Source: Rhodospirillaceae bacterium | GTDB taxonomy: Bacteria > Pseudomonadota > Gammaproteobacteria > Burkholderiales > SG8-41 | Direction: 5' to 3' | DNA: 53,169 nt | NCBI GenBank assembly: GCA_050260255.1 | Contig: JBLNBW010000208.1 | Coordinates: 1 to 53,169, forward strand | Shown: in pieces, positions 12,730-34,493 of the stretch | Numbering within the stretch: position 1 is the first letter of the stretch | How the letters are laid out: every line of letters starts with the position of its first letter | Position numbers and translations under genes: made by a program | The notes under the pieces: generated by a model | Seen by the model: only the letters and a program-made list of their open reading frames with translations | What the model was told of the DNA's origin: nothing | Databases searched by the model: none

Positions 12730-12733
12730 TCCG

Positions 12734-13573: not shown

Positions 13574-13761
13574 CGGGCACCCCCGCCGGGCAGCGGCTGG
13601 AGCGGCCGGGTAAGCGCCCCGGCGGCTTTCGTCTGGTGTCGTTGAGCCATCGCCGTATTCTACAGCGATTTACCCGCGGCGCTAGAGGTTGCACGCAACT
13701 AGTAGCGTGTCGCCGCGGGGCAACGCCTAAATGTAGTGGGGTCGCAGTCGAGCCGAGCGGC

Positions 13762-14964: not shown

Positions 14965-14983
14965 GATTGCGGGATCGTTCTTA

Positions 14984-15682: not shown

Positions 15683-15812
15683 TGGGGTGGCTCGCGCGCC
15701 GGCTATGACCGTCGTGGAGCCCCTGGTTGTCGGTATGTCCGCTGGCACCGCCGCGGGCGGGCGACGGCAGGCGGAAGTATAACAAATGAGCTGCCGCCGA
15801 TCGTAAACAGCC

Positions 15813-16436
15813 TCAGCTCGTGAAAACGCCGGTGCTGCCTTTGCCGACGCGCGTGATCTCCGGCGTGTCTCCGGTGAGTTGCACGAGGGTGGTCGGCACG
15901 ACGCCGCCGGGTCCGCCGTCGATCACGAGATCGACGAGTTTTTCGAGTCGCGCGCGTATGTCGTGGGGATCGGTGAGAGGCTCGGTGTCGCCCGGCATGA
16001 TGAGCGTCGACGATACGAGCGGCTCGCCGAGGTCCTGCAGCAGCGCCTGCACGATGCGACTGTCGGGCACGCGAACGCCTATCGTACGCCGGTTGGGATG
16101 CTGCAGGCGTTTCGGCACTTCGCGCGTAGCATGCAATATGAACGTGTAGCTTCCGGGCGTCGCCGCCTTGAGCACGCGGAATTGCCGGTCGTTCACGTGC
16201 GCATAAATCGCCACTTCCGACAGATCACGGCATATGAGCGCAAGCAGCTGCTTCTCGTCGAGATCGCGGATCGCACGTATGCGCGCCAAGGCTTCCTTGT
16301 CGCCGATGCGGCAGCCCAGCGCATAGCACGAGTCGGTCGGATACGCGAGCACTGCGCCCTCGCGCACGAGCTGCGCCGCCTGGCGTATGAGCCTCGGCTG
16401 CGGATCGATGGGATGTATGGTGAAAAACTGCGCCAT
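15813..16436 (-). CDS. Sua5/YciO/YrdC family protein (YciO-like)
   Basis: MAQFFTIHP, YPTDSCYALGC, TIGVRVP; yciV-yciO synteny. Confidence 0.9.
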   Translation of the reverse strand: MAQFFTIHPIDPQPRLIRQAAQLVREGAVLAYPTDSCYALGCRIGDKEALARIRAIRDLDEKQLLALICRDLSEVAIYAHVNDRQFRVLKAATPGSYTFILHATREVPKRLQHPNRRTIGVRVPDSRIVQALLQDLGEPLVSSTLIMPGDTEPLTDPHDIRARLEKLVDLVIDGGPGGVVPTTLVQLTGDTPEITRVGKGSTGVFTS

Positions 16437-17441: not shown

Positions 17442-19616
17442 TCACCAGCCTGCTTCGCGCCACACCAGCGCCATCGCGGCACGCACGAAATCGGAAGCCA
17501 GTGACTCCTCGGTGCCGCTGATGACCACTTTGCCCCGCCAGGTATGTGCGGCGAGCTCCGCTTCGGCAGCGGGCACGGCAAGCGTTACCCGGTACACAGC
17601 CTTCTCGGGCACGAGCTTTCCGTCGGCCTCGCGCGCCTCGACCGAGCCGCCGTGCTGAGCGGCCAGCAGCGGCGCATCGAGCGCGTGGGTCGCATCCTTG
17701 TCGACGCTGACGACGCGCAATCCGATCGCATGGCCGGAGCGGCCGTCGGGATAGAACATCGCCGTATCCCCGACCGCGATCCGGTGAACGGCGTCTTCCG
17801 TGACGTAACACTCGACGTACCAGCCGTCGCGGCTCACGACCGTCGCGAGCTGCTCCGAACGCGCGATCCACGAGCCGGGCCGCACATCGGGGTCGTGCAG
17901 GCGAAAGTGGCCGTCGACTCGGGCAACGGGCTCGTATTCCTGCTTTTGCGATTCCAGTCCGCGGCGCGCCGTCTGCGCCGTCTGCAGTTCGCCTTGTCGC
18001 ACCAGCAGCTTCGCACGTTGCTCCGGACTAAATGCCGATACGGCGATCTCCGCGTCATAGCGTTGCACGCGGCTGCGCGCTGCAGTAAGCCGCTGATCGA
18101 GCTGCTCTGCACTCATGCGCAACAGCGGCGTACCGGCTTTCACGAACGCGCCGTCCGTCACGTAAACCTGTTCGAGCCGTCCGGCATCCCGCGCGTGAAC
18201 CGGAAATTCCTCTCCCGGATGCAGCAGCCCGGACGCTTGTATGCGGCGTGGAAGCGGCACGAAGCACAGCGCTACGGCAGCCAAAACCACGAGCATGGTG
18301 ACGTACGACCGTCCGCTTTGGCGGATGCCGGGCAGCAGCGCGCGCCAAGTCTTCAGTTCGGAATAGATGGGCATGAGAACGAACCAGATGATTTCGACCG
18401 CGAAAAGGACTATGCCGACCGCCTTGATGAAGAACGAGTACACCAGTATTGCGATGCCGAGAAAAACCACGAGCCGATAGCACCACGTGAAGTACGCAAA
18501 CAGTAGCAGGCCACGCCGCCGCTGCCTGCTGTAATGCTCGGGCGGCGGTGCGCCGAGAGCGAAGAGCAGCTCGCGCAGCCGCCATCGGGCCAGGGCAAAG
18601 GCACGTGCATGCAGGTTCGGCATCTCCAGAAAATCGGACAACAGAAAATACCCGTCGAAGCGCATGAAGGGGCTGCAATTGACGATGACGGTGCTGACCC
18701 AGGTGGTCGTCGCAAGCAGGAACGCTGCCGTGCGCAGGACGCCATCGGGCAGAAACGCCCACGCAAGCGTCGCCCACGCAGCAATGAGGAGTTCGGTGAT
18801 GACGCCCGCAGCACCGATATGGACGCGCTGGCGTCGCGAGGTGAGCTTCCACGCCTCGTTGGTATCGGTATACGGCATGGGCCACAGCACGAGAAATGCG
18901 ACGCCCATTGCCGGCACGCGGCAGCCGTAGCGCTTCGCAGTGAGCCCGTGTCCGAGCTCGTGCAAGATCTTGACGAACACCAGCGTGCACACGTACGACA
19001 CGATGCCCGATACGCTGAAAGTGCCGACCAGCGTCGTTCTGAAGACATCCCATTCACGATAGACGAACGCAAGCCCCGTCACCATGGCAACGCCCGTAAT
19101 GGCGAAAAAGCGCGCCGTGAACAGGAAGCCGAGCTTGTCGTTCAGCGATGCAAGTGCCGCGTCGGGATGCACGAGCGGAATGCGGAAGAAGAGATAACTG
19201 TGCAGCAGACGTTGCCACAGCGAGTGCGTCAGGCGCGCCTTCACCGCTGCGAACTCGCCCGACGTATCGGCACCGGGCGTATGCGCGAGCTGGTTGCTGC
19301 GCAGGAACTTCCCGACCGCCTGCACGTCGTCGGCTGTTACGTCGAGTGTGGTTTCGGCGTTGACCGCCTCGACAATCCGCCGTACGCCGCCAAGATGCCA
19401 GTGGGCGAGTATTTCGAACGTGAGCCAGTCGAGCTGGAAATAGAGATTGCGCACGGGATCGTGCAGCGTCCAGCTCGGTTGTCCATCGCGCAGCCGCGGC
19501 CCTTCGTGCAGCTGCAGTTCCTCGCGCAGCCGCGGCCACGGATACGAATGAGCGAGCTTAAGACGCGGCGCCACTCGACCCGCGTTGGCGTTTGCGCTAG
19601 ATACCGAAGAATTCAC
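17442..19616 (-). CDS. M50 (site-2) metallopeptidase fused to a C-terminal HlyD-like adaptor domain; PqqD-like N-terminus
   Basis: HELGH (18948-18962) and NCSPFMRFDG in a multi-TM region; C-terminal barrel-sandwich/coiled coil (VTDGAFVKAGTPLL). Confidence 0.85.
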   Translation of the reverse strand: MNSSVSSANANAGRVAPRLKLAHSYPWPRLREELQLHEGPRLRDGQPSWTLHDPVRNLYFQLDWLTFEILAHWHLGGVRRIVEAVNAETTLDVTADDVQAVGKFLRSNQLAHTPGADTSGEFAAVKARLTHSLWQRLLHSYLFFRIPLVHPDAALASLNDKLGFLFTARFFAITGVAMVTGLAFVYREWDVFRTTLVGTFSVSGIVSYVCTLVFVKILHELGHGLTAKRYGCRVPAMGVAFLVLWPMPYTDTNEAWKLTSRRQRVHIGAAGVITELLIAAWATLAWAFLPDGVLRTAAFLLATTTWVSTVIVNCSPFMRFDGYFLLSDFLEMPNLHARAFALARWRLRELLFALGAPPPEHYSRQRRRGLLLFAYFTWCYRLVVFLGIAILVYSFFIKAVGIVLFAVEIIWFVLMPIYSELKTWRALLPGIRQSGRSYVTMLVVLAAVALCFVPLPRRIQASGLLHPGEEFPVHARDAGRLEQVYVTDGAFVKAGTPLLRMSAEQLDQRLTAARSRVQRYDAEIAVSAFSPEQRAKLLVRQGELQTAQTARRGLESQKQEYEPVARVDGHFRLHDPDVRPGSWIARSEQLATVVSRDGWYVECYVTEDAVHRIAVGDTAMFYPDGRSGHAIGLRVVSVDKDATHALDAPLLAAQHGGSVEAREADGKLVPEKAVYRVTLAVPAAEAELAAHTWRGKVVISGTEESLASDFVRAAMALVWREAGW

Positions 19617-20958
19617 GTATCGTCGCGAGCGGGCGCCGCACTATCCAATACGCCAGCGGGACCTCTTCGCCGGCCAGCCGCACGGTGCCTTTGAGACCGA
19701 TGCGATGAGGCGTATCGCGATCGAGGACCGCGCGAACGCGATAGGCGTACACGCCATCGGGCCGCCGCACGGCGTCATGCGAGATGTAGCGAATGCTGCC
19801 TGCCACAGGATCGAGCGGGCTTGCCGACAGATACAGGCGCGCGCTTGCTTTTTCCGGAAGAGGTATGGCGTCTGCGGCACCCATCCACGCCTCGATCTCC
19901 TTGTCCTGTGGGCTCGCCAGGCGAAGGATGCGCTCGCCGGTACTCACCGGCCGCCCTATCCATTCCGATGGATCATCGAAGATCACGTAGCCGTCGTTCG
20001 GCGCGACAACCGTCGAGCGCGAGCGCTGGGTCTTGAGAAAATCGAGCTCGGCGCGTCGCTCCGCGACCGTACCGCGCGCCGAAGGCAGCTGCGCCCTCGC
20101 CTTCGGATCCATGAGCGCCTGTTGCTCGTACTGGCGCAGCTCGGCTTCCGCCGTGCGTAGCGCCTGCACAGCAACGTCGTACTTGCTGCCGATCGCGATG
20201 TCGTCGAAAGCAAAGAGACGATCGCCCTTCTTCACCGCCTGGTTCGGGCGAACGTAGAACTCGCTCACGACGCCGTCGAGCGGCGCGCGCACCGCGACCG
20301 GTTCCGCGGGCACCAGCTCGCCCGGGGCAAGAACCGTCAAGGGGACCGGCACCGAGAGCGCGGCTGCGGCAGCGGCGACGAGCGCGATGCGCCATGTCCG
20401 TACGCTCTTCTTGAACCGGTGCCACCGGGCGCTCCACGAGCGGCGATATGTCGCTTCAGCGCGCGCGTGATAAGCAAAGCGCCACGTGTCGATCCAGTCG
20501 TAGATGTCGTGGATTTCGTCGTCGGTCCACGGCGTGTCCCGTGCGAACAGCACACCGCCGCGAGGTATGCCGTCCCGTGCGTCGCTGGCCGCTATGGGTA
20601 TCCAGAGTCCGTGCTCCGGCAGCCAATCGGACCATTCGGCAGCGTGGCGCTCGTCGAGGTCGTTGCGATCAATGCGGCCTGCGCCCTTGTTCGCGAGCCG
20701 CTTGCACGTTGCATTCACCCACTGGACATAAGGTGCGTTGCGCTCGATGTCCACCACCCCGGACAGTGCCGTCGTGGCGCCGACTTCGAACCACAGTGCC
20801 GCCTGCCGGTACGGCGCGAGCAGATGCGTGTCGTTGACCACGATGAAGTGCAGCGCCGCGACATCCGACGCGGTGCGGGCGCGCCGTATCAGCTCCAGCG
20901 CGACTGCGGCGGTGCTTGCGATCCCGATGGACGGCTCGGCCTGGTTCATGGAGCTCAA
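19597..20958 (-). CDS. HlyD-family membrane fusion protein with an N-terminal cytoplasmic (GAF-like) domain
   Basis: ~190-aa soluble N-domain, one TM, then VRAPLDGVV..VRPNQAVKKGD..APNDG lipoyl halves; start 20958 or 20949. Confidence 0.8.
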   Translation of the reverse strand: MSSMNQAEPSIGIASTAAVALELIRRARTASDVAALHFIVVNDTHLLAPYRQAALWFEVGATTALSGVVDIERNAPYVQWVNATCKRLANKGAGRIDRNDLDERHAAEWSDWLPEHGLWIPIAASDARDGIPRGGVLFARDTPWTDDEIHDIYDWIDTWRFAYHARAEATYRRSWSARWHRFKKSVRTWRIALVAAAAAALSVPVPLTVLAPGELVPAEPVAVRAPLDGVVSEFYVRPNQAVKKGDRLFAFDDIAIGSKYDVAVQALRTAEAELRQYEQQALMDPKARAQLPSARGTVAERRAELDFLKTQRSRSTVVAPNDGYVIFDDPSEWIGRPVSTGERILRLASPQDKEIEAWMGAADAIPLPEKASARLYLSASPLDPVAGSIRYISHDAVRRPDGVYAYRVRAVLDRDTPHRIGLKGTVRLAGEEVPLAYWIVRRPLATIREFFGI

Positions 20959-23900
20959 CCCGCTTTAGTCGGTGTTGACATCGCTTGTCTCACCTTCGCT
21001 AGCGGCATACGAACGCGCATTTTGTGCTCGCGCAGTTGCTGCTGCAGTCCCGGGCGTCCGTCGAATTGCTTGGTCTTCGCTTCCGCAATCACCAGCCCCG
21101 CTTCGTCAGCCGCCTCGCCCTGCACCTCGCGGCCGGGTTCTCCTGGAATCTGCCCCTGCTGCTCCGGGTCGGGCTGCGGCTCTTGTCCCTGCTGGCGATT
21201 CGGCTGCCGCGGCGCTTGTCCTTGCTGTGCAGCGTCCGGCAGTGCGGGCGCGTGCGCCGGTGTCGCCGGACGATCCCCAGCGCCCTTGTCGCCGACATGG
21301 AAGCGGAACAGCGATTCGACTTCGTTGCCGCTCGAGTCGCGGGCGATCACCTTGATCTGCAATTCGCCCTGGAAGTTTTGAGGCGGCTTACCTTCGAACA
21401 CGCCGGTCGTGCCGTTGAACGTGAGCCACGGTGGCAGCGGTGTGCCGTCCGCCATCTGCGCGGCAAGCGTGAGCCTCTCGCCCGGATTCGTGTGCATGAA
21501 GGTGCCTTCGGGCACAGCGAACTTCGCTTCGCCGTTGCGCTCGGCGAACTGATCCGGAATCGGATTGGCGACGGTAAGCGACGGCGGCTCCGGCGGCGGC
21601 GCGCTCTGCTTGACTACGATCTCGGTCGGAATGAACGGCTGCTGGGCAGGCAATGCCGGCGGCGGCGGAGAAGGCACGACCGTAGGCGGAACGATGACGA
21701 CCGCGACCGGCGGTTGAGGCTTGGGCTTGTCGTCGTTCGGTGTCAGCGACGTCGCCTTGCCGTCCGCGTCGTACACGATGCCGGTGCCATCATCGACGAG
21801 CGTGGCTACGCCCTCCGCCGACCGTCCGCCGGTATTCGTTGCCGTAAGTTGGAGTGTTTCCGCGCCCTCGTACTGACCGTCGTCGACGATGGCGGTGCGT
21901 ACCAGGAGTTTCGTGCCGCTTGCCGGTATGCGGATGAAGCTGTTCGGCGCGTAATCGACCCATGACGTGCCGTCGAAGTACTGCAGCGGCACTCCCGCGC
22001 CGGCATCGGCCGTATCTATGCCCAGCGTCGCGTCGACGTCCCCTGCGGTCGCCGTATTGCCGAGCGCCAGCTTCACCTGCTGCCCCGGGCTGCCGGTCAC
22101 CGTGAACACCGCATACGGCGAGGCTTCGTTCACCGTGATCGAGTTCACCGACAGCGGACGATCGTCATCCTTCGGGGTCGTGTCATCCGTCGTCGGTCCA
22201 CCGTTCGGATCGTTGGGATACAGCACCCCCGTGCCGTCGTCGACGATGGTGCCCACACCTGCGGCGCCGCTGCCGCCGGTGTTCGTCGCCGTCAGCGTGA
22301 AGGTTTCTGCCCCTTCATACACAGCGTCCTGCTTGATGGTCGTACGCACCAGCATCGTCGCACCCGGCATCGTGACGTAACTGCCGGCGGTGTAATCCAC
22401 CCAGGCGGTACCGTTGTAGTACTGCAGCGCGGTTCCGGTGTCGGTTCCCAGCGTCGCATCGGTGTCTGTGGTCGCTGCCGTATTGCCGAGACCCAGCTTC
22501 ACTTTCTGCCCGGCGTTGCCCGTCACCGTGAACACCGCATACGGCGAGGCTTCATTCACGGTGATCGAGTTCACCGACAGCGGACGATCATCATCCGGAG
22601 TGTTGCCGGTCGGATCGCCGTTGGGCCCGTATACGACGCCGGTTCCATCGTCGACGATCGTCGCGATGCCGGTGTTACCGAGGCCGCCGGCGTTGCTCGC
22701 GGTGAGCGTAAACGTTTCCGGCCCCTCGTAGACTCCGTCGTTGACGAGCACTGTGCGCACCAACAGCGTCGTCCCGCCTGCCGGGATGGCAACCAGACTG
22801 CCAGGCGTGTAGTCGATCCACGCCGTGCCGTTGTAGTGCTGCAGTGCGACGCCATTACCGGCGTTAGCCGTATCGATGTCCAGCACCGCGTCGACGTCGG
22901 TCGTCGCCGCCGTATTGCCCAGATCGAGCTTCACGAGCTGACCCGCCTGCCCGGTCACCGTAAACACTGCGTACGGCGAAGCTTCGTTCACGGTGATCGA
23001 ATTCACGGTAGGTGCAGGGCCGCCGCCGGACTTCAGCGAACCGTTCGCGCCGAGATCGTAAGTAGCCGACGATGAGTCACCGTCGGCGTCGGTGACCGTC
23101 TGTTGCAGCACAAGCACGCCGGCATTGAGCGTGAGGCTCAGTCCCTGCGCGGAGCTCGCCGCGTCGCGATACAAATTCTTCGACTGCGTGAAGGTCACTA
23201 CCCCGGTGCTCGCGTTCACGCTGATGCGGAGGTACTCCGTCGCGCCTACCGTGCCGACAACGTCGTTACCCACCTTGTTGAGCACGATCTGGCTGCCCTG
23301 GCCCACGCCGTCGCCATCCGCGCTCGACGTGTCGCTCGCGTCCAGCGCATACAGCCCCGAGCTCACGTTCGTGCCCGTCAGATTGAGCGCGTAGGCTATG
23401 CTGCCTGTGCCGTCCGTGCCGTAGATGCCCGTCGTCGCAAAGTGGCTGGAGAAATCCCCCGTGGCGCTCACCGCGCCGCCGCCGAGATTCGTCTCGTCCA
23501 GCGTCACCGCCACTGCCGTCGTCGGTGTCGCAGTCGCCGCGGTGGGGCCGTCATCCTTCACCTTGAACGCACCTGCCGTACCGAGGTTGAGATCGCCCGT
23601 GACGACGTCACCGTCCGCGTCCGTTACGGTTGCGCGAATCGCAATATCACTGGCATTGGCCGTGGTCAGCGTCGAGCTGTCGTCTGCGTTCGCGGTATTG
23701 CTATGCCAGATCGGCCTCAGCTGATTGAACGTGATCGCGCCGGTGGCGGTATTCACGGTAATGGTGAAGTAATTGGTGCCGCCGACGCTTCCCGTGATCG
23801 TGTTGCCCGCGAGGTTCATCACGATCTCGCTGCCTTGCCCGATGCCGTCGCCGTCGGTGTTCGACGTGTCGGACGCGTCGACCGCGTAAAGACCGGAGCC

Positions 23901-26900
23901 GACGTTCGTGCCGTTCAGAACGAGACTGTAGGATGTGGACCCCGCGCCGTCCGCGCCGTAGTTGCGTGCAGTAGTGATGTCGTCCGCAAAGCTGGCCGTT
24001 GCATCGGTGGCGAGATCCGTGTCGTCCACCGTCAGCGTGTCCCCCGTGTCAAACGTCATCGCGGAAAGCGTGGGGGTGTCATCCACGATTTCTATCGTGA
24101 CCGTCTTGGTCGCGTTCGCATTGCTCGAATCGGTGACCTTGACGTCGAACGTGTTCGTTTCCGTCGTGTTCGCGACATCGGTCGTCGCGCTCGTAAGCTG
24201 GAAACGGTAGGAAAAGGTGCCGCTGTCGTAACCCGTGAGCGTGACGGTTCCATTCGCCGTGGTGAAGCTCGATCCGACCATCCCGGAAAGACTGCCGGTC
24301 AGAACCGTATCCGCCTTACCCGGCGTCGAGAACGTGATCGATGCGATGTCGGCCAAGCCATCCGGATCGCTGACGGCAAAGTAACCGTCGAAATACTCGT
24401 ACGGGCTCGACGCGTCGCTTCCGGTAGACATCGACGACTCGTACACGGCGCCCGTCGACGGCGTAACGGAAATCGACGGTGCATCGTTGGCCGCCGTAAC
24501 GTTGATGGTGACCGTCGCCTCGCTGGAGGTGAGCGCCCCGTCGGTGATCGTGTACGTGAAGCTGTCGCCGCTCGTCGCATTCGAGCCGGGCATGTAATCC
24601 GTCGAGCCGTCGCTCTTGATGTAGAGCGTGCCGTTCGCGAGCGTCACCTGCTTCCAGCCGCTGCCGCTCGGGTGATTGGTGCTATCCGTGCTCGACGCCA
24701 GATTCGAAAACAGCACACCGTTCACGGAGGCCATCGTCAGCGCGGTAACCGTCGTTTCCGGATCCGAGTCCTGTCCTGCCGATCCGTCCGTGTCGGTGAT
24801 GACGTTCTTACCCGCGAGCAGCGTATCTTCCGTCGCCGTATAGGTGTTGTTCTTTGCCGCCGGCGCGTCATCAGCGCCGTCGATGGTGATTGTCAGCGTG
24901 GAGCTCGACGTCGCTGCCGCCGTGTCTTGCATGGTGTACGAGAATACGTCGGTCAGCGTCTGCCCGGCGCCGAGCGCCTGCACCGTCGCGTTCGTGTTAT
25001 CTACCGCATAGGTGTACGAGCCGTCGGAGCTGATCGTCAACGTGCCGTAGAGGCCCGCGATCGACGTGTTGGTGGAGACCGCCGATTCCGTATTGCCGTT
25101 CTTCGCTGCGGACTTCACTGTCTTCGTATCGCCGGCGTCCACATCCGTGTCGTTCGTCAGGACGTTACCGGTGGGGTTGACGCCCGCGCTGCCGTTCGAC
25201 GTACCGCCTGCCTCGGCGGCAGTCGCTGTGTCGGCCGTCGCTGCGGGATTGTCATCTGCCCCCTGGATAGTGACCGTGATGGTGGTCGTGTCCTTCAAAA
25301 GCGCGCTGTTCGCGCTGGCAAACTGTCCGTTGGCGACCTGGTACGTGAATACGTCGGTCAGCGTGTCGGACGACGTGCGCAGCGCCTGCACGCTCGAGTT
25401 GCCGTTGTTGACCGTGTACGTGTAGCTGCCATCGGAATGCAGCACCATGGTCCCGTACAGGCCATTGAGCGTGAGATTGGTGCTGGACGCGGCGACGAAC
25501 AGCACGTTCACGCCGGTGCCGCTAGCCGTTGCATTCTGGCTCAGCGTGATTGTCGTGCCGCTCACTGCGGTCACTGTCGTGCCGGACGCGATTCCGGTAC
25601 CTGTCACCGACATGCCGGCGGTAATACCCGTCGCCGAAGCCACGGTGATCGTGGCAGTGCCGCTCGTGGTCGACGCCGTCGTCGTTGCGTAAATCGTCGT
25701 GTCGCTCGAGTCGCTCGCAGCGCGACCCGCGATGACTTGCAGCGTACCCGTTGGCGTCGTGTCGGCAGTGGCACCGCTCGCACCGGTCCCCGTCACGACG
25801 TTCCCGGTCGGGTCCGTACCTGCCGTACCGTTGCTCACACCGCCTGCCTCGACAGCCGTAATGCTGTCCGACTTGGCGTTCGGGTCGTTCGTGCCGGAGC
25901 CGTAGACGGTGATGTACAGCGTCTTCTGATCTGTCGAGCCTGCTGCGTCAGCTACGGTGTACTTGAACGTTTCTACGAACGACTCGCCTTCGCTGAGATT
26001 CGTATTGGCATTGGTCGGCGTGTATGTATACGAGCCGTCAGACGCGAGTGTCAGCGTTCCATGACGCCCGGTGACCGTGGTGCCGGCGCTCGCGCTGAAC
26101 GACAGCGTGGTCCCGTTGGTCACGCTCGTCAGCGCATTGTTGACGACGATCGAAGTGATGTTGCCTGAACCGTCATAGGTTACCGAGCTGACCGACGTGC
26201 TGGCCGGGACGTTCGTTCCGGTCACCGTCATCCCGACCGCAATAGCGCCGCTCGGCGCAGAAATCGTCACGGTCGTGGTCCCGGTCGTCGTCGCCGACGA
26301 CACAGTACCCGATTTCATGCTCGAACTGGTCTCGGTCGTGGTGCTTGACGAATTTTTGAAGCCGATCGTGGTGTTGTTGAAGTCACTGATAACGACCCGA
26401 TTGCCGGGAGCACTAGCGTCGTAGTAGCTGTACGGCTGGCCGCTCAAAGGAATCGTACGACCGGTACTATCATAGCCACCGGTTGCCGTGATCTGCGCGC
26501 CACCGCTCGTAAACAAAGCACGCCACGTGTTATCGCTCGATACAAAGAACCACGCCTCGTCGCCGTTGCCGACCGGACTGAACGTCGTTCCCGGAACGAA
26601 GGTTAGCTGAGAAGTTACGCCACTGGTATTGACGTTGCTGACGGTAGCCGAGCCGGCCAGTCCGCTCACCGTCTTTGTTTCCCCGTTCCGGTCGACGTCC
26701 GTATCGTTCGTCAGGACATTCCCCGTCGCCTTGCTGCCCAGGGAATCAGACGACGTATATTGCGTGCCGTCCGTGAGCAACGACTCCTTCGCGGTGTTGT
26801 AATCGTCAGCGCCGACCGGATTATCGTTCGCGCCCCTGATGGTGATTGTCAGTGTCGACGTCGATGTCGTCGTGGCGTCGCTTACCGTGTAACTGAAAGT

Positions 26901-29189
26901 CTCCGTCAGCGTGTTGGTGGTAAGGCGCAGCGCCTGGACGGTAGTGTTGGTGTTGTCTACGACGTATTTGTACGTCCCGTCCTGAAGAATGCGGAGTTCG
27001 CCGTACAGGCCGAGCGCCGTCGCGTATGCCGAGGAGATGTTCGTGTGCGATGTGGTGACGCTCGTTGCGGTAGACGTCTTTGCGGTGTTGATCACCGAGC
27101 TCACGACGATGGTGTTCCCATCCGCATCCGCATCGGCCGTTTTGTTCGTATCCGATCCCCCGGTAAGCGACACGACGCCGGTCAGCACGTTGCCCGTCGG
27201 GTCGGTCCCTGCCGTTCCGTTGCTCGCACCGCCAGCCTCGACCGCCGTGTTCGTATCCGCGACGAGCGTCGGCGCATCGTTGACCGCGGTGACGTTGAGC
27301 GTAACGGTCGCCGACGTGCTCGAAGTCGCCGTGCCGTCGGTGATCTTGTATGTGAAGCTGTCGCCGGCCGCGCTGTTGGCGTTCGGCATGTACTTGAACG
27401 ACCCGTCCGACTTGAGATAACCCGTGCCGTTAGTGAGATTGAGAACCTTGTATCCCGTGTACGTGTTGCTGTCCGTGAGGCTCGAAAACGCGGTGGTAGT
27501 GCTGCCGATCGTGACGCTCGCGATCGTGAGCGACGACGTTGCCGTTTCCGTGTCCGAATCCATTCCCGCGCTCGGGTCCGCATCGGTGACGATGTTGCGG
27601 CCGGTGAGCAGCGTGTCTTCGAGGGTCGCGTACGTGTTGCTCTTCGGCACGGGCGCGTCGTTGATACCGAAGATCGTGCGCCATGTCTCCGAGCCCGAGT
27701 ACGCTCCACCCCCGATGTCGCCGTTCACCGCGTTCTGCTGCGTCGCCGACACCGCCGCGCCGTAGAGCGTCCCGCCGCTCGTCGGCCACGACGAAGCGCT
27801 CAGCGCCTGCTTGCCCCCACCCAGATTGCCCACGTACGTGTAGAAATCCGCGTACGCCTGGGTGTCGAAGTTCATCACGTAGTAATTTTCCGTGACGCCG
27901 TCCGAGTCCAGGTCGGTCTCCGGAGATAGCGCGAAATACACGTTCACGTTCGCGTTGTAGCGATTTCCCGTCGTCTGCACACCGGAAGTTCCCGTCGCCG
28001 ACTTGTTCGTTCCCGAGTCGTAGATGAGAAACATGTGCTGCGCGTCGAAGGTCGTGTTGTTCGGCCTTGTGTTGTCGGTCGCACTGCTCGAGTCGAGCGC
28101 CACGAAATAGAGCTGGTATGTGTAGTTCGACGTGTCGTTCGCCACCAGCCCCGTCGTCCCGTTGACGTCGGCCGATCGGTCGTAGCCGTTCTTCTGCACC
28201 ACGTGCACGAAGAGTCCGAACTCCGGTATGCCATCGGCGTTCATGTCGAACAGGATCTGCCCCCAGTCGACCTCGAGGTCCTTCGGCGGCGCCTTCTCCA
28301 GCCGGAACTTGACGTTGAGGACGCTGTTGCTGCTCGTGAGCATGTACTGCAGGTACGGATGCGCGCTATCGCTCACGATGTCCGGCGCAGCTGCCGTCCA
28401 ACCGCCGTCCGAAGGCGTCTTGTTCGGATCGGCCGCACGGCCTACGGTAATCCAGCCGCTGTCGCTCGGCGTGGCGGTTTCCACGCTGATCGCCTGACCG
28501 TCGATGCTGAGCACGTGGTGGTCGTTATCCACCCCCGTGCCGATAGCCTGCACGGTGGCAAGATCGTTGCTCGCCACATGCGAGAAGAGCTCGCCCTCGT
28601 CGCCCGGAGTATCCGACGCGCCGTTGAGGACCGCGTCGAATGCGTGGCCTATCTCCTCTAATAGGACTGCGACGCCGTCTTTCGCCGGCGCATTGGCGAG
28701 CCAGTCGCCATCGACGTAAAGCGTCGGCTGACCGGAAGGATCGTTGGCTGCAAACGCCCCGTGCGCGCCGGCCATTTCAGTGGAAGACCGTATATCGACG
28801 CGCAAGCCGAAGTTGTCGTCGAGGATCGCGTTCTTCAATGCGTCGGCAGCGCGGTTCCATTCGTCGTTGCCTGCATTCGCCGTGAAGATCTCAGCGAGCT
28901 TCTGACGCCAGTCGTCACGCCCGAAGAATGCCTGGAGCTGCTCGCGCACCTGCGGCTCCAGCGCCTTCACCGCTTCGCTTCCCGCAGAGGAGTTTTCGGC
29001 AGCGATTTTCAGCAGGTGGGCTCCGATATCGACCGGCGCAGTCGTATCGGCTGCATGCGTCGCAGCATCGGCGGCCGCGGCGCCGTCGAACATGAGACGG
29101 CGCTCCAGGGCGAGCGGCGCCGGACTGTTGCGTACGGGCCCACGTTTCTTTTTCCCTGCCTGTCCTTGCATACCCGCGTATGAGCTCAT
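20955..29189 (-). CDS. Giant secreted repeat protein / adhesin (2744 aa)
   Basis: N-terminal LERRLMFD, EEIGH motif, cadherin/VCBS-like repeats (NDAP, GNVLTND, YGTL...DGSYTY), two DUF5801-like repeats, three NEASPY repeats, dystroglycan-type cadherin (LPPWLTFN); Thr/Ser/Asp rich. Confidence 0.9.
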   Translation of the reverse strand: MSSYAGMQGQAGKKKRGPVRNSPAPLALERRLMFDGAAAADAATHAADTTAPVDIGAHLLKIAAENSSAGSEAVKALEPQVREQLQAFFGRDDWRQKLAEIFTANAGNDEWNRAADALKNAILDDNFGLRVDIRSSTEMAGAHGAFAANDPSGQPTLYVDGDWLANAPAKDGVAVLLEEIGHAFDAVLNGASDTPGDEGELFSHVASNDLATVQAIGTGVDNDHHVLSIDGQAISVETATPSDSGWITVGRAADPNKTPSDGGWTAAAPDIVSDSAHPYLQYMLTSSNSVLNVKFRLEKAPPKDLEVDWGQILFDMNADGIPEFGLFVHVVQKNGYDRSADVNGTTGLVANDTSNYTYQLYFVALDSSSATDNTRPNNTTFDAQHMFLIYDSGTNKSATGTSGVQTTGNRYNANVNVYFALSPETDLDSDGVTENYYVMNFDTQAYADFYTYVGNLGGGKQALSASSWPTSGGTLYGAAVSATQQNAVNGDIGGGAYSGSETWRTIFGINDAPVPKSNTYATLEDTLLTGRNIVTDADPSAGMDSDTETATSSLTIASVTIGSTTTAFSSLTDSNTYTGYKVLNLTNGTGYLKSDGSFKYMPNANSAAGDSFTYKITDGTATSSTSATVTLNVTAVNDAPTLVADTNTAVEAGGASNGTAGTDPTGNVLTGVVSLTGGSDTNKTADADADGNTIVVSSVINTAKTSTATSVTTSHTNISSAYATALGLYGELRILQDGTYKYVVDNTNTTVQALRLTTNTLTETFSYTVSDATTTSTSTLTITIRGANDNPVGADDYNTAKESLLTDGTQYTSSDSLGSKATGNVLTNDTDVDRNGETKTVSGLAGSATVSNVNTSGVTSQLTFVPGTTFSPVGNGDEAWFFVSSDNTWRALFTSGGAQITATGGYDSTGRTIPLSGQPYSYYDASAPGNRVVISDFNNTTIGFKNSSSTTTETSSSMKSGTVSSATTTGTTTVTISAPSGAIAVGMTVTGTNVPASTSVSSVTYDGSGNITSIVVNNALTSVTNGTTLSFSASAGTTVTGRHGTLTLASDGSYTYTPTNANTNLSEGESFVETFKYTVADAAGSTDQKTLYITVYGSGTNDPNAKSDSITAVEAGGVSNGTAGTDPTGNVVTGTGASGATADTTPTGTLQVIAGRAASDSSDTTIYATTTASTTSGTATITVASATGITAGMSVTGTGIASGTTVTAVSGTTITLSQNATASGTGVNVLFVAASSTNLTLNGLYGTMVLHSDGSYTYTVNNGNSSVQALRTSSDTLTDVFTYQVANGQFASANSALLKDTTTITVTIQGADDNPAATADTATAAEAGGTSNGSAGVNPTGNVLTNDTDVDAGDTKTVKSAAKNGNTESAVSTNTSIAGLYGTLTISSDGSYTYAVDNTNATVQALGAGQTLTDVFSYTMQDTAAATSSSTLTITIDGADDAPAAKNNTYTATEDTLLAGKNVITDTDGSAGQDSDPETTVTALTMASVNGVLFSNLASSTDSTNHPSGSGWKQVTLANGTLYIKSDGSTDYMPGSNATSGDSFTYTITDGALTSSEATVTINVTAANDAPSISVTPSTGAVYESSMSTGSDASSPYEYFDGYFAVSDPDGLADIASITFSTPGKADTVLTGSLSGMVGSSFTTANGTVTLTGYDSGTFSYRFQLTSATTDVANTTETNTFDVKVTDSSNANATKTVTIEIVDDTPTLSAMTFDTGDTLTVDDTDLATDATASFADDITTARNYGADGAGSTSYSLVLNGTNVGSGLYAVDASDTSNTDGDGIGQGSEIVMNLAGNTITGSVGGTNYFTITVNTATGAITFNQLRPIWHSNTANADDSSTLTTANASDIAIRATVTDADGDVVTGDLNLGTAGAFKVKDDGPTAATATPTTAVAVTLDETNLGGGAVSATGDFSSHFATTGIYGTDGTGSIAYALNLTGTNVSSGLYALDASDTSSADGDGVGQGSQIVLNKVGNDVVGTVGATEYLRISVNASTGVVTFTQSKNLYRDAASSAQGLSLTLNAGVLVLQQTVTDADGDSSSATYDLGANGSLKSGGGPAPTVNSITVNEASPYAVFTVTGQAGQLVKLDLGNTAATTDVDAVLDIDTANAGNGVALQHYNGTAWIDYTPGSLVAIPAGGTTLLVRTVLVNDGVYEGPETFTLTASNAGGLGNTGIATIVDDGTGVVYGPNGDPTGNTPDDDRPLSVNSITVNEASPYAVFTVTGNAGQKVKLGLGNTAATTDTDATLGTDTGTALQYYNGTAWVDYTAGSYVTMPGATMLVRTTIKQDAVYEGAETFTLTATNTGGSGAAGVGTIVDDGTGVLYPNDPNGGPTTDDTTPKDDDRPLSVNSITVNEASPYAVFTVTGSPGQQVKLALGNTATAGDVDATLGIDTADAGAGVPLQYFDGTSWVDYAPNSFIRIPASGTKLLVRTAIVDDGQYEGAETLQLTATNTGGRSAEGVATLVDDGTGIVYDADGKATSLTPNDDKPKPQPPVAVVIVPPTVVPSPPPPALPAQQPFIPTEIVVKQSAPPPEPPSLTVANPIPDQFAERNGEAKFAVPEGTFMHTNPGERLTLAAQMADGTPLPPWLTFNGTTGVFEGKPPQNFQGELQIKVIARDSSGNEVESLFRFHVGDKGAGDRPATPAHAPALPDAAQQGQAPRQPNRQQGQEPQPDPEQQGQIPGEPGREVQGEAADEAGLVIAEAKTKQFDGRPGLQQQLREHKMRVRMPLAKVRQAMSTPTKAG
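21727..23013 (-). repeat. Three tandem ~140-aa repeats (VNSITVNEASPYAVFTVTG...IVDDGTG) within the giant protein
   Basis: Near-identical DNA blocks around 22100-22160, 22525-22585 and 22955-23010. Confidence 0.9.
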
Positions 29190-29222
29190 GCGGCACCTGT
29201 GTAAGGTTGTAGTCGTGCCCGC

Positions 29223-30023
29223 TCAGCGCGACGCGCTCGCAGACGAGAAGGAAGCCCGGCCGCTCATGCCGGCGATCAGCTCCGGGAAGTGGCCGTCGAT
29301 GACCGCGGAGATCTTCACCGATTGGCTCACCGCATCGACCCGCGCACCGACGCGCTGGACTTTCGCCGGATACGTGCGTCCGGTCTCGTCGATACGCACG
29401 CGGAACGCCTGCCCCGTCCTGAGCCACGACAGCCACCGGGAAGGGACAATGAATTCGAGTTCGAGCGCGCTGTCGTCGATGATTTCGAGAAGCGCCTGCC
29501 CCGGCTGAACGAATTGCTGCTCGCGCGCTTTCTGCTCCGCGACGCGCCCGCCGAAGGGCGCGGTGATGTTGCACTTGGAGACATAAGCCGTCGATGAATC
29601 GAGCTCCGCCTTGTTCTTTTCCATCTCGGCCTTCGATACGTCGAGCTCCAGTTTGCCGACGGCGTTGAGCTCGGCGAGGCGGACGTTGGCTTCCCAGGTC
29701 CGCGCCGCAGCGCTGTACGCCGCTTCCGCTTTTTGCATTTGCGCGGACTGTATGCTGCAGTCGAAAGCGACGATGACGTCGCCTTCCCTGAAGCGCCCCC
29801 CTTCGGGAACAGGCAGCCGGTTGATCTTTGCGCCGATCTCGGCGGCAAGGGTCGTGTAGCGGCGCGGCAGCAATTGCGCGCGTATCGATTGGCCGGAACT
29901 CGCCGGCGCGGTGGTCTCGGTCTGCGAACCCGACTGGCCGACCGATTGCGCGGCCAGCGGGCCAGCAGCGCAGTACAGGCTGGTGAAAACGAAAATTGTG
30001 GCGAGTGTCTTCATTGTAGTCAT
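29223..30023 (-). CDS. Periplasmic adaptor (RND-type membrane fusion protein)
   Basis: Signal-like N-terminus, LAAEIGAKI..EGGRFREGD, ITAPFGGRV, VDAVSQSVK, LIAGMSG. Confidence 0.87.
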   Translation of the reverse strand: MTTMKTLATIFVFTSLYCAAGPLAAQSVGQSGSQTETTAPASSGQSIRAQLLPRRYTTLAAEIGAKINRLPVPEGGRFREGDVIVAFDCSIQSAQMQKAEAAYSAAARTWEANVRLAELNAVGKLELDVSKAEMEKNKAELDSSTAYVSKCNITAPFGGRVAEQKAREQQFVQPGQALLEIIDDSALELEFIVPSRWLSWLRTGQAFRVRIDETGRTYPAKVQRVGARVDAVSQSVKISAVIDGHFPELIAGMSGRASFSSASASR

Positions 30024-30135
30024 TCACTCATGCCGTGCACGCGATGTGTGCACGACGGCATCCCGTTGTCCATTGCACTCCTCGATCAGAGTAGGAGTGC
30101 CGCTTCGCGCAGCTACGCCTGAGCTCTTGTGACGT

Positions 30136-32250
30136 TCAACGAGTCGACACCGATGCGTCGGTGAGCTTCTCCGGCAACGGAAAGTTCTTGACCGTCACGA
30201 CCATGCTCATGTACCCGGCCAGCGGACGCTCGTCGTAGTGCACGACGCCGTGCTCGTCGACCCACTTGTACATTTGGCGTCCGGGACCAGCGCTCTCACC
30301 CACGCGAAACACGAGCCCCTTCAGGCTCGCAGCCGGGACCTCCCCGTTCGCCGGTGCCGGCGCTGCGGCCACTGCGCCCGTCTGCTCGGGTTGCTCCGGC
30401 GCTTCGGAGCGGTCCTGGGTGGTCTTCACACCTGCGCTTTCGGTGCGGTGCGTCTTCTCAGGCGAATCCTCCGAACCCATGGCCGGCTTCGGCGCCGCAG
30501 ACAACGATTCGACGGGAGGCTGTGCCGCCTGCAGGGCCGGAGCCGCTGCCGCGACGTCACTCGATGGGTCGATCGGGCGCGACGAGCCGGACACCGCGGC
30601 TTTGGTCGTCGGCGCGGCAGACGCGCCTACCGTCACTGCCTTTGTCGGCTGCGGCGGTTCTGAAGCGCGCGTCACCGTCGCGGCCGCCGCCTTGGGCGTT
30701 GCGTCGCCGCTCTTGAGCGGTTCGCCGCTGGTCGGCAGATCGCCGTTCTCCCAGCCGGCGAGCGCTTTCGAAACGATGTCCTTCAGCTGCGCGAGGCTCA
30801 GGTCCTGAACACTGTCGAATTCCGGCTCCACACCCAACGTTGCCTGCAGCCGGCTTGCGGCGGCATGCGCCTGCGACAGCGCCTGATAACGGCGCAGGAG
30901 GCTCAGGATGGCCGTCGTACGATTGGCCACGGTCTCGAGCTTGCTCTGCACCTGCGCCTGCTCGCGCTTGGCCATGATCTCCACGATGCGCTGATCGACG
31001 TCGGCGACGTCCTGCGCCCGCTCGTACTGGTTGAGCGCGTTGGCATATTGCAGGCGTGCGATGTGCACCTGCGCCAATATCGCCATCTGCATCGCCATGC
31101 GCCGCTGATCGGCGAGGGCGACCCCTGCGTCCGCAAGACGCTTCTGCGAGGGGCCGGACAGCAGGTTGAACAGGTTGAACGAGATGGATGCGCCCGCCTC
31201 GTTCCAGTGTCGGTTCACGAGAAAATTATCGGTATCGTATTTCGTGTTGTAATTGAACGACACGCCGGGAAAGAGCCGCAGGATCACCTTGCGCGTCTCG
31301 TCGCCCGCTATGCGTGCATTATAGAAATGCTCTCGCAGCTCGGCGTTCCGCCCCACCGCGATCTCTTCCAGCTTTTCAACCGGCACATCGAGCATCTTCC
31401 GGCTGACCGTTTCCGTCGGCTCGGCGACTTCCAGGTTGAAGGCGAGCGGAACGTTCATGAGGTGCGCGAGCTCGAGCCGGGCGGTCGTCAGCTCCTGATT
31501 GGTGGATTCGAGCAGACGCAGGTTCTCCAGCACCTGCCGCTGGTAGCGCAGGCTTTCCACCGGCGATCGCACCCGCTCCGCTTCCGCCTTGCGCGCATCC
31601 TTGAGCGCGTCTTCGGCGAGCACGATCGCATCCTGCACCTGCTTCTGCAGTTTCTGCGCGCTTGCCGTGCGCCAGAACGCCGTGCGCACGTCCTGAATGA
31701 GCACGTGCATCGCCTTGCGCCGCCGTTCCAGCGCTATCAGCACGCGGTTGGCGTTCTGCTTCGCCCCGTAATAGCTTGCGCCGAAATCCAGCAGGTTCCA
31801 CGTGAGCCCCATGTCGTACAACACATGGGACCGCTCGGTGGAGATGAACGGATTGCTGAGCGCCGGCTGGCCGGTAACCGAGTCCCTGCTGCGGGTGATG
31901 AGCTCCTTGTCGCGCCACCGGTAGCCCGCTTGAGCGAGCAGGCGGGGCAGCATGTCGTACTGGCTGACATCGAGCTGGTTCAGCGCGATAGCCTCTTCCA
32001 TCATGCGGCTGCGGCGCTCGAGGTTGTATTTGAGCGCACGCGCGATGGCTTCCTCCAGCGTGATCTTGCCTTTAACGGGCTCTATCTCGGACTGGGCCTT
32101 CGCGCGGTCGGCAGTCGCAGTGGCGCGCAGCTCGTCATGGGTGACAGGAAGAGGCTGAATTCCTGAGCAGCCGGCGATGAATAGAGTCGCAGTAACCAGC
32201 GCTATCGCTTTTACGGGCGCGCTTGCGCGCCCCCTTCGGCTGCAGTGCAT
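30136..32250 (-). CDS. TolC-family outer membrane lipoprotein with Ala/Pro linker and C-terminal DUF4124-like domain
   Basis: Lipobox IAGC, ITLEEAIARALKYN, LTWNLLDFG, helical OEP repeats; tail MYKWVDEHGVVHYDERP. Confidence 0.87.
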   Translation of the reverse strand: MHCSRRGRASAPVKAIALVTATLFIAGCSGIQPLPVTHDELRATATADRAKAQSEIEPVKGKITLEEAIARALKYNLERRSRMMEEAIALNQLDVSQYDMLPRLLAQAGYRWRDKELITRSRDSVTGQPALSNPFISTERSHVLYDMGLTWNLLDFGASYYGAKQNANRVLIALERRRKAMHVLIQDVRTAFWRTASAQKLQKQVQDAIVLAEDALKDARKAEAERVRSPVESLRYQRQVLENLRLLESTNQELTTARLELAHLMNVPLAFNLEVAEPTETVSRKMLDVPVEKLEEIAVGRNAELREHFYNARIAGDETRKVILRLFPGVSFNYNTKYDTDNFLVNRHWNEAGASISFNLFNLLSGPSQKRLADAGVALADQRRMAMQMAILAQVHIARLQYANALNQYERAQDVADVDQRIVEIMAKREQAQVQSKLETVANRTTAILSLLRRYQALSQAHAAASRLQATLGVEPEFDSVQDLSLAQLKDIVSKALAGWENGDLPTSGEPLKSGDATPKAAAATVTRASEPPQPTKAVTVGASAAPTTKAAVSGSSRPIDPSSDVAAAAPALQAAQPPVESLSAAPKPAMGSEDSPEKTHRTESAGVKTTQDRSEAPEQPEQTGAVAAAPAPANGEVPAASLKGLVFRVGESAGPGRQMYKWVDEHGVVHYDERPLAGYMSMVVTVKNFPLPEKLTDASVSTR

Positions 32251-32585: not shown

Positions 32586-33287
32586 TTACTTGTGAGCCGA
32601 GGCGGGATGTCTCGTCAGCCGATGCTTGTTCGCGAACACGAACAGATCGAGCCGGTTGGAGAGGCCGAGCTTCTCGTAGATGGACGTCAGGTGATTGCGC
32701 AGCGTGCGGTCGCTGATATCGAGCGAGCCCGCGATCTTCTTGATGGTTGCGCCTGCGTGGCCTGCAATCGCAGCGACGACTTCGGTCTCGCGCGCGGTAA
32801 GCAGCGCGATTTTTTTTCGCTCGGGATCCTCGGAGCGCCTTTCGCCGAGCCGTACGAGGCCGAGAAGGCGGCTGGTGCTCACGCGATCGAGCCAAATCTC
32901 GCCTTCATGCACCTTCACGATGGCTTTGACGAGATCCTGCGGCTCGTCGTCATTGCCTATGACACCGCTTGCACCGGCAAGCATAACGGCGTCCAGGAGC
33001 GCCCGATCGGCGCCTCGCGCAAACGCGAGCACCCGCGTGCGCGATCTTTCTGCCAAGCCGGATATGAGATCGAGCCCCTCGAGCGCACCGAATGCGACAT
33101 CCACCAAGGCCACGTCCGGCTTCTTTGCCGCGGCCAGGCGCGCGGCCTCGCCGTTGCTGGTCGCTTTGCCGACCGTCTCGATGCGCGGCCCGGCCGTTTC
33201 CAGCAGCCGTTCCAGGCCCCACAAGACGATGCGGTGATCGTTGACGAGCAGTACGCGTATGGGCTTGCGCCCGGCATGCGTCGTCAT
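32586..33287 (-). CDS. NarL/LuxR-family response regulator (atypical receiver)
   Basis: REC-like IRVLLVNDH...DVALVD plus LuxR HTH (LTARETEV...TLRNHLTSIYEKLG). Confidence 0.9.
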   Translation of the reverse strand: MTTHAGRKPIRVLLVNDHRIVLWGLERLLETAGPRIETVGKATSNGEAARLAAAKKPDVALVDVAFGALEGLDLISGLAERSRTRVLAFARGADRALLDAVMLAGASGVIGNDDEPQDLVKAIVKVHEGEIWLDRVSTSRLLGLVRLGERRSEDPERKKIALLTARETEVVAAIAGHAGATIKKIAGSLDISDRTLRNHLTSIYEKLGLSNRLDLFVFANKHRLTRHPASAHK

Positions 33288-34278: not shown

Positions 34279-34493
34279 GGCTATGTTCGACTCGTGTCGC
34301 ACAATTTACCACACGTTGCTGAATTATAGACCGTTTCTGCCTCCGTGGTAGCCGCTATGGGCACGGCGCGGTATAATATGCGGCCGTGATCCTAATTCAA
34401 TCCCTCCATCCCGCAACGTCCGGTTGCGACCGCTTGTGATCCGCTCACGACAAGCCTACCGGGCGCGCTGCCCGCGCCACCGGCGCCTTTGTT

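Follow-up and report, generated by a model that had tools for sequence, protein, structure and literature searches.

A conserved five-gene locus with an M50 protease-adaptor fusion as a candidate system for export and processing of a leader-bearing giant protein without a linked ABC transporter

We analysed a 53,169-base stretch of DNA from a Rhodospirillaceae bacterium (hereafter the window), which is the entire contig C208 of its source genome (G000; 5.06 Mb, 350 contigs), with emphasis on five co-oriented genes on the minus strand at positions 17442-32250. In the direction of transcription, these genes encode a TolC-family outer-membrane protein, a small periplasmic adaptor or membrane fusion protein (MFP), a giant repeat protein, an adaptor with a GAF-like domain (GAF-MFP) and a fusion of an M50 protease to an adaptor (M50-MFP). 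The genes are spaced by 112 and 33 bases and then overlap by 4 and 20 bases, and gene calling based on the GC content at third codon positions (GC3) selected exactly these five frames. An earlier interpretation made from the letters of the DNA (the sequence-only reading) had described the same tightly spaced, co-oriented genes, and its coordinates were confirmed with the correction of one frame, that of the small MFP (29223-30023). The 370-residue open reading frame (ORF) at 28915-30027 lies in a different frame and is an arginine-rich artefact without a family match. A motif scan of the five operon proteins identified no Walker A, LSGGQ-like or GGxGxD (repeats-in-toxin, RTX) motif, and no gene for a resistance-nodulation-division (RND) or major facilitator superfamily (MFS) pump is present in the operon, in agreement with what the sequence-only reading had stated about Walker A, LSGGQ and RND. 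All features described below for the operon are encoded on the minus strand.

The M50-MFP (17442..19616) is a protein of 724 residues in which a PqqD-like domain, an M50 membrane core and a periplasmic MFP are joined (Peptidase_M50, E 8.2e-9; HlyD_3, E 1.4e-8). The AlphaFold2 model of this protein, with a mean predicted local distance difference test score of 83.1, displays an N-terminal domain, a helical membrane core with a last membrane helix at residues ~435-450, and a periplasmic adaptor. Six hydrophobic windows, two of them overlapping, were identified in a hydrophobicity scan, which upholds the earlier claim that the M50 protein is the sole polytopic inner-membrane component of the operon. 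A motif scan located the zinc-binding motif HELGH at residue 219 (18948..18962) and the second M50 motif, NCSPFMRFDG, of the form NxxPxxxxDG, at residue 313 (18651..18680). The residues H219, E220 and H223 as well as N313, P316, D321 and G322 do not vary among close relatives (53/53), and of the 51 family members encoded in the fetched loci all contain HExxH and 49 contain NxxPxxxxD[G/A]. The motifs of a site-2 protease are thus present in a polytopic membrane core, and proteolytic activity is predicted. The protein scores 137 bits against the NCBIfam model daptide_HExxH (cut-off 300) and 38.5 bits against the YydH/LiaK-type model (cut-off 225). By Foldseek, the periplasmic MFP part (residues 456-724; 17445..18251) is most similar in the PDB to MacA (3fpp, E 2.4e-13), followed by EmrA, AcrA and MexA, and its modelled hairpin consists of two helices of ~23 residues each (504-527 and 537-559).

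Residues ~29-110 of the M50-MFP (19287..19532) form a cytoplasmic domain that resembles PqqD, that is, a recognition element for ribosomally synthesized and post-translationally modified peptides, as judged by the fold of the model and a profile-profile match. Three strands (35-39, 48-53 and 58-62) are followed by three helices (64-71, 78-88 and 95-107) in the AlphaFold2 model. The M50-MFP family separates into the clade of the window and a sister clade, which is ~28% identical in this protein; the N-terminus of a sister-clade protein matches PqqD in Pfam (E 6e-10, 39.8 bits, cut-off 23.4), and the N-terminal profiles of the two clades were aligned to each other by hhalign (98.4%, E 7.2e-15). 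PqqD-like domains serve as leader-peptide binding modules of peptide-maturation enzymes. A complex prediction for residues 1-440 of the M50-MFP with the leader of the giant protein scored 0.69, as compared to 0.82 for a control in which chain 1 was replaced; this gives no verdict, and it is not used either way.

The three remaining parts of the transport machinery comprise one outer-membrane protein and two separate adaptors, which together with the M50-MFP gives the three adaptors (three HlyD-family matches) and one TolC-family protein (one OEP match) that had been proposed before. The TolC-family protein (704 residues; 30136..32250) matches Pfam OEP in two stretches (E 6.4e-31). Its N-terminus is hydrophobic (segment at residues 10-28) and terminates in FIAGC, while the C-terminus is extended by ~200 residues of low complexity (~500-704) with a weak match to DUF4124 (E 3.4e-4). 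C-terminal extensions of OEP proteins are also seen in relatives, with frames of up to 644-851 residues, and the protein encoded at the sister-clade locus L027 (6654-8594) contains an NTF2-like Cds6_C domain (E 1.1e-13). The small MFP (266 residues; 29223..30023; HlyD_3, E 4e-21; HlyD_D23, E 4.9e-17) has a signal-like hydrophobic segment at residues 7-25 and is 64% identical to its counterpart in a genome of the same genus (G011). The GAF-MFP (453 residues; 19597..20958; HlyD_3, E 8.6e-15) is organised into a cytoplasmic GAF-like domain (residues ~14-168), a membrane helix (191-209) and a periplasmic MFP. Its N-terminal region matches the GAF region of the sister-clade proteins by hhalign (97.7%, E 1.3e-12), and the latter reach Pfam GAF with E-values of 3e-10 and 1.5e-6. 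The earlier description of this protein as a GAF-like MFP is therefore supported by a profile-profile match to GAF proteins of the sister clade, but not by a Pfam GAF match of its own.

The giant protein (2744 residues; 20955..29189) is built from VCBS, cadherin-like, tandem-95 and DUF5801 repeats. A hydrophobicity scan identified no hydrophobic segment or signal peptide, and a scan for GGxGxD identified no RTX repeats. Near its N-terminus, the leader LERRLMFDGA (residues 28-37; 29079..29108) is preceded by the basic stretch KKKRGPVR. At the opposite end, the motif GRPGLQQQL (residues 2711-2719; 21033..21059) is related to a motif in the giants of other loci, in which the C-terminal module consists of a cadherin-like Ig domain, a GRxGLSEQLR consensus and a basic tail, the latter comprising 25 residues in the window.

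Relatives of the M50-MFP are widespread. Among 8000 scored candidates, 5190 match at E<=0.001, so the family has at least 5190 relatives, which have received database names such as "putative peptide zinc metalloprotease" and "HlyD family efflux transporter periplasmic adaptor", and at least 521 stretches in species-representative genomes encode one of them. We also sampled the class of the window by an even pick of 400 genomes, each at least 90% complete and with G257 unscored, and identified an M50-MFP homolog at E<=1e-20 in at least 55 of them. Counts from this sample are floors, with 2-3 candidates scored per genome for the M50-MFP and SecA and 13 for the leader profile described below.

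We compared the gene content of 57 regions around M50-MFP genes by tblastn, of which 28 are those nearest to the window protein (window-type) and 29 are from the sister clade. The GC3-based caller missed or merged SecA-like genes in six genomes (G006, G012, G013, G016, G022 and G163) and the GAF-MFP gene in G011:C25, and the counts of SecA-like genes were instead taken from tblastn. All four transport genes are located inside the fetched stretch in 15 of the 28 window-type regions, and homologs of the TolC-family protein adjoin the system in 15 of the 28. In 17 of these regions the system has a large repeat protein as its neighbour, and most of the others end at contig ends. G011 encodes all five parts in the order seen in the window, its giant being a different protein of ~3800-4050 residues, and a genome of another family (G039) has the order giant-OEP-MFP-MFP-M50MFP. 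As a replicate set we used 80 named loci with 46-53% identity, mostly from Burkholderiales (such as Comamonas, Massilia, Janthinobacterium, Duganella, Herbaspirillum, Zoogloea and Rhodocyclus). Of the 80, 74 encode a GAF-MFP. Upstream sequence of 7 kb or more was available for 41 loci, and in 39 of them an ORF of at least 600 residues on the same strand terminates just before the GAF-MFP gene; 38 of these 39 ORFs are at least 1000 residues long and 13 run off the locus. Since the same set recurs across many genomes, the five-gene arrangement is far beyond chance, which lends support to the proposal of the sequence-only reading that the genes represent one conserved functional set with the giant as its client.

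The leaders of window-type giants share a pattern in which a basic stretch precedes ALE-x-R-(I/L/F/Q/V)-(M/L/V)-(F/L/Y)-D-(G/A), which was recovered from 12 of 12 such giants with a visible N-terminus and from 24 of 25 in the replicate set. A first version of the pattern missed LEQRFMFD (8/25) and was widened (24/25), both versions being post hoc, that is, drawn up after inspection of the sequences. Five columns (L28, E29, R31, D35 and A37) are invariant in the 11 aligned leaders. The leader looks like a weak variant of LEPR-XLL (NCBIfam NF012209), against which the G011 homolog scores 13.7 bits with a cut-off of 17. A profile of the 11 leaders (E<=1e-4) had matches in at least 18 of the 400 class genomes. 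Each of these 18 also belongs to the 55 that encode an M50-MFP, as compared to ~2.5 expected if the two were unrelated, and nine of them had supplied no leader to the profile. No statistical test was applied to this overlap because related genomes are not independent. In two genomes with no giant at the locus (G171 and G361), a leader-bearing giant is encoded on a different contig. The sister-clade giants contain another variant of the leader, LE-x-R-x-L-(Y/F/L)-S-A-D (9/9); the type of leader thus follows the clade of the machine, which is one contrast and not a statistic. At the C-terminus, a GRxGLSEQLR-type motif (a post-hoc pattern) occurs within the last 90 residues in 34 of 39 giants of the named replicate loci and fades in deeper relatives. 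The PqqD-like domain of the M50-MFP and the conserved leader and tail of its presumed cargo were missed in the sequence-only reading, and they point to leader recognition and cleavage rather than to a bare translocase.

Two further leader-bearing giants in the window genome are broken by contig ends, one on C290 (L100 2-9190, at least 3063 residues) and the other on C42 (L101 1-4971, at least 1657 residues), with the leaders LLALEARVLFDG and LIALEPRMLFEG. A second pair of M50-MFP and GAF-MFP genes, apparently convergent, is located on the 6-kb contig C58 of the same genome (L024 1-6096). Some cargos (L021, which is the G011 giant, and L109, L146 and L162) begin with MNR(I/L)(Y/F)R..WN....F(V)AV.E..R..GK at ~40-60 residues upstream of the LE-x-R leader. 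This N-terminus resembles the extended signal peptide region of autotransporters, and its combination with the LE-x-R leader suggests a composite N-terminal signal.

ATP-binding cassette (ABC) transporters are not a regular component of these loci. On the 53-kb contig no ABC match to the HlyB model was obtained at E<=0.001. An exporter-type ABC gene was identified in one of the 57 regions (G421, MsbA-like), and small soluble ABC ATPases were found at varying distances in six others. Exporter-type ABC genes are located just downstream in two of the 80 named loci (L157 and L147), the sole such cases among the 80, and in L147 a single ABC exporter (13506-15065) follows the M50-MFP gene. Among five window-type genomes with complete loci, none reached the cut-off for PrtD or HlyB, and LssB-type genes are present in two (G314 and G286). 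Without a PrtD, HlyB or LssB match above cut-off, the other three, G090 (one contig, 98% complete), G238 and G326, are thus without a type-I ABC transporter by these three models. The sequence-only reading had named a consistently linked HlyB-type ABC gene as the observation that would speak against it; linkage was not consistent (1 of 57 and 2 of 80 cases) and three of the five genomes checked are without a type-I ABC transporter above cut-off, so that the reading is not refuted by this check. Elsewhere in the window genome, on other contigs, there are three PrtD-type ABC genes (657, 731 and 562 bits; cut-off 510), each with its own type-I HlyD.

A different ATPase is associated with the sister clade: in 17 of its 29 regions, the gene after that for the M50-MFP encodes a truncated SecA (tblastn). 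The encoded proteins are ~650-675 residues long and contain SecA_DEAD, the preprotein cross-linking domain (PPXD) and a second P-loop. The other twelve sister-clade regions are without a SecA-like gene, two of them being cut by contig ends. A SecA-like gene was identified in none of the 28 window-type regions (tblastn) and none of the 80 named loci, and a search with PF07517 at E<=0.001 in 12 window-type genomes (G000, G039 and ten others) recovered only canonical SecA and weak unrelated matches. Canonical SecA is present in each window-type genome checked. In the class sample, 17 genomes have short SecA-like genes among the matches listed, and only one of these, G370, also has a window-type locus; the threshold of E<=1e-60 used there can miss divergent genes, and the copy in G110 was found by tblastn only. 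A quick tree of 51 M50-MFPs, with SH-aLRT (Shimodaira-Hasegawa-like approximate likelihood ratio test) support only and several long branches flagged, separates a clade of 24 rows, 16 of them with a SecA-like gene, from a clade of 27 rows with none. The window is placed in the SecA-less clade, the 25-row core of which has an SH-aLRT support of 100.

Two side observations concern SecA in window-type genomes. The window genome has two canonical-looking SecA genes, on C253 (L038) and C194 (L039), which are both cut by contig ends and differ where they overlap; this could reflect a real second SecA or contamination, which is given as 3.5%. In G090, a 62-bit SecA_DEAD match (C1:1316628-1317260) is located inside an open frame of 3513 residues, which would be a giant with a segment similar to a SecA motor.

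The sister-clade arrangement corresponds to a module that was described computationally as the "secondary SecA_DEAD" module (Kamneva, Poudel and Ward, 2015; PMC4452313), the only paper that our literature search found to pair SecA_DEAD with HlyD. According to its main-text account, the SecA_DEAD protein was proposed to be the ATPase and the M50 protein the membrane pore; no substrate is named there and the role is called "completely unknown" (PMC4452313). As in the window, that account lists Peptidase_M50+HlyD, GAF+HlyD, a small HlyD/biotin-lipoyl protein and sometimes OEP, with no ABC gene, and the window M50-MFP is a full-length homolog of the SecA-linked proteins. Unlike that module, the window clade is without a SecA_DEAD gene by each of the searches described above, and neither the leader-bearing giants nor the PqqD-like domain feature in the main-text account (PMC4452313). 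New relative to the latter are thus the SecA-less clade, a client class with a leader and a tail, and the PqqD-like domain. The suggestion in the sequence-only reading that the M50 protein acts as a translocase in a distinct route is consistent with the gene set and the lack of a linked ABC gene, but the idea of an M50 pore had already been published in this account (PMC4452313). Experimental work on the module was not found in the literature, nor was a paper that joins peptidase M50, HlyD and TolC.

We propose that the five genes constitute a conserved and dedicated export-and-processing system for the leader-bearing giant, which would operate independently of a classical type-I ABC transporter, and we assign this reading a probability of roughly 0.55. 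Its parts differ in strength. The giant is very probably a client of the system, and the system probably also provides the export route itself. The odds are about even that the PqqD-like domain binds the leader, and they are equally balanced for cleavage of the leader by the M50 protease. For the motor, a SecA-type protein is the most likely single option, which in the window clade would be the housekeeping SecA, although we consider this a tentative assignment with less than even odds. It is ranked above a route without any ATPase and above an unlinked ABC transporter because in the sister clade a gene for a truncated SecA adjoins the M50 gene.

Under the proposed reading, the leader of the unfolded giant would be captured by the PqqD-like domain, presented to the M50 core and then cleaved off. 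The unfolded chain would cross the inner membrane at a platform formed by the M50-MFP and the GAF-MFP, and it would leave the cell via a duct to which the TolC-family protein and all three adaptors contribute, with no ABC transporter involved. A gating or sensing role would fall to the GAF domain, and the C-terminal tail could act as a final plug or anchor. SpoIVFB, an M50 protease, cuts the pro-sequence of pro-sigma-K, and the putative binding and cutting of the leader are modelled on this enzyme and on peptide-maturation systems. A more specific version, which we regard as unlikely in its entirety, is a mirror image of the type-I pathway: an N-terminal leader would be read by PqqD and cleaved by M50, a hetero-oligomer of M50-MFP and GAF-MFP would replace the ABC transporter as the gate, the chain would move N-terminus first via the TolC-family duct with no dedicated ATPase, and the C-terminal tail would stay behind as an anchor.

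Several observations weigh against the proposal of an ABC-independent export-and-processing system. Residues 1-140 of the window M50-MFP and residues 1-185 of the window GAF-MFP have no match in Pfam at E<=10, and a BLASTP comparison of the N-terminal domain of the window M50-MFP with that of the sister clade was not significant; the PqqD and GAF assignments are thus based on the topology of the fold and on profile-profile matches. The window giant has no match to the 24-position profile NF012209 even at E<=1. No giant was found nearby in four window-type regions (G035, G171, G280 and G361). The absence of the SecA-like gene from twelve sister-clade regions suggests that this gene is dispensable or replaceable. 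M50 proteases are, to our knowledge, not known to form protein-conducting channels, and for every family member export, cleavage and binding are inferred. The ABC genes provide further counter-evidence, in that the three PrtD/HlyD pairs of the window genome could act in trans, and in L157 (Rhodocyclus purpureus) two tandem PrtD-like ABC genes (12475-15866), with 45-47% identity to the PrtD-type gene of the window genome, are located directly after the M50-MFP gene. Finally, the literature mentions a Vibrio LEPR-XLL giant that has a C-terminal RTX region and the look of a classical type-I substrate (PMC10868602).

Three alternatives were considered. The first, in line with the sequence-only reading, is a route with no ATPase at all, in which an oligomer of the M50-MFP would be the translocase and the proton-motive force, or extracellular folding or Ca-binding of the repeats, would provide the drive. 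This alternative, which we consider unlikely, is in line with the lack of a linked SecA-type ATPase gene in all 28 window-type regions and all 80 named loci, with the recovery of canonical SecA only from the 12 window-type genomes searched, with the three of five genomes that have no type-I ABC transporter above cut-off, with the M50 protein being the only polytopic component, and with the ten uncut sister-clade regions that likewise have no SecA-like gene. However, a gene missing at the locus does not mean that the motor is missing, housekeeping SecA is encoded in every genome checked, and we know of no M50 protein that conducts proteins or couples to the proton-motive force. That an ATP motor is available to the family is shown, moreover, by the dedicated SecA-like ATPase of the sister clade (see also PMC4452313). 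The term "ATPase-less" in the sequence-only reading is therefore correct for the locus, but it is not established as a mechanism, given the truncated SecA in 17 of 29 sister-clade regions and the PrtD pairs elsewhere in the same genome.

The second alternative is that an unlinked classical type-I ABC transporter moves the giant C-terminus first, with the M50-MFP and its partners serving as adaptors or accessory parts. The PrtD/HlyD pairs of the window genome, the ABC genes that follow the M50-MFP gene in L157 (two) and L147 (one), the conserved C-terminal tail of the giants and the RTX end of the Vibrio giant (PMC10868602) are all compatible with it. We nevertheless consider it improbable, since linkage is seen in just 1 of 57 and 2 of 80 loci, the PrtD genes of the window genome are already paired with HlyD genes of their own, the window giant is without RTX repeats, and G090, G238 and G326 have the full set and a leader-bearing giant with no PrtD, HlyB or LssB match above cut-off. 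Least probable is a module that is not a translocon, and instead only processes, anchors or releases the giant, with the M50 cut serving release or quality control, or serves to export a small peptide, which could be the cleaved leader: the combination of PqqD-like and M50 domains is the layout of peptide-maturation proteases, the two NCBIfam models of which give the sub-cut-off scores reported above, and relatives are named "putative peptide zinc metalloprotease", but 15 of the 28 window-type regions also encode a full duct, with three adaptors and a TolC-family protein, which exceeds the needs of a processing step.

We compared the proposed export-and-processing system to known systems. Classical type-I secretion of giant adhesins is exemplified by HlyBD-TolC, by LapBCE with LapA and by SiiCDF with SiiE. 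The window shares with these a TolC-family duct, periplasmic adaptors and an operon-encoded giant adhesin that is made of repeats and lacks a Sec signal peptide, but it has neither RTX repeats nor the linked ABC transporter that defines the class. It further differs by three different adaptors, two of which have cytoplasmic domains predicted to sense or bind, and by a cargo with a conserved N-terminal leader, which suggests N-terminal recognition, and with a different C-terminal tail in place of RTX. In the peptidase-containing ABC exporters of bacteriocins, a C39 domain cuts the leader during export, so that leader recognition and cleavage are part of the export machine, as would be the case here. 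The predicted protease of the window is, however, a membrane-embedded M50 enzyme fused to an adaptor and not a cytoplasmic C39 domain on an ABC pump, and the client is thousands of residues long. The M50 proteases of peptide maturation (daptide HExxH and YydH/LiaK) and SpoIVFB are similar in being membrane proteases with HExxH and NxxPxxxxDG motifs and a likely N-terminal pro-sequence substrate, and the former also in the putative PqqD-like domain of the leader-binding kind. In contrast to the peptide-maturation enzymes, the window protein has scores below their cut-offs, is fused to an MFP and is linked to TolC and giants. Tripartite pumps that do not depend on ATP include those of the RND type and MFS pumps such as EmrAB-TolC. 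Here, the similarity consists of an adaptor and a TolC duct without an ATPase and of an MFP part that resembles MacA, EmrA, AcrA and MexA, while the differences are that none of the five operon genes is of the RND or MFS type and that the client is a protein and not a small molecule.

Biofilms and the colonisation of surfaces are shaped by giant adhesins, which are usually assumed to leave the cell by type-I secretion. The module described here is common, with at least 5190 relatives and a presence in at least 55 of 400 genomes of the class of the window, and it is found in named cultivable genera such as Comamonas, Massilia, Janthinobacterium, Herbaspirillum, Duganella and Variovorax. Our analysis ties it to a client class, a candidate recognition domain, a candidate cleavage enzyme and a clade without any consistently linked ATPase. 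With the client class and the candidate domains named, it becomes directly testable how a protein of 2000-4000 residues is moved across two membranes with no ABC pump involved.

The surroundings of the operon provide some additional observations. Directly upstream, on the same strand, there is a gene for a LuxR-type response regulator (32586..33287, minus strand; Pfam Response_reg, E 1.2e-12; GerE, E 9.4e-12), which is linked to the operon by position and may be its regulator. An HNH endonuclease gene (33655-34302, minus strand; HNH_5, E 1.2e-14) is located between the response regulator gene and a DEAD-box helicase gene, and the operon is followed downstream by the housekeeping genes PHP and Sua5/YciO. 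Genes for GGDEF/EAL proteins adjoin sister-clade loci (L027 5001-6602; L030 3954-6719) as well as an MsbA-related ABC gene in the window genome itself (L001 3297-4538). Such neighbours fit a control of adhesins by cyclic di-GMP and may hint at the ligand of the GAF domain. In G090 (C1 18734-21507; L046), a complete window-type locus is followed by two transposase-like genes, which suggests that the module may travel as an island.

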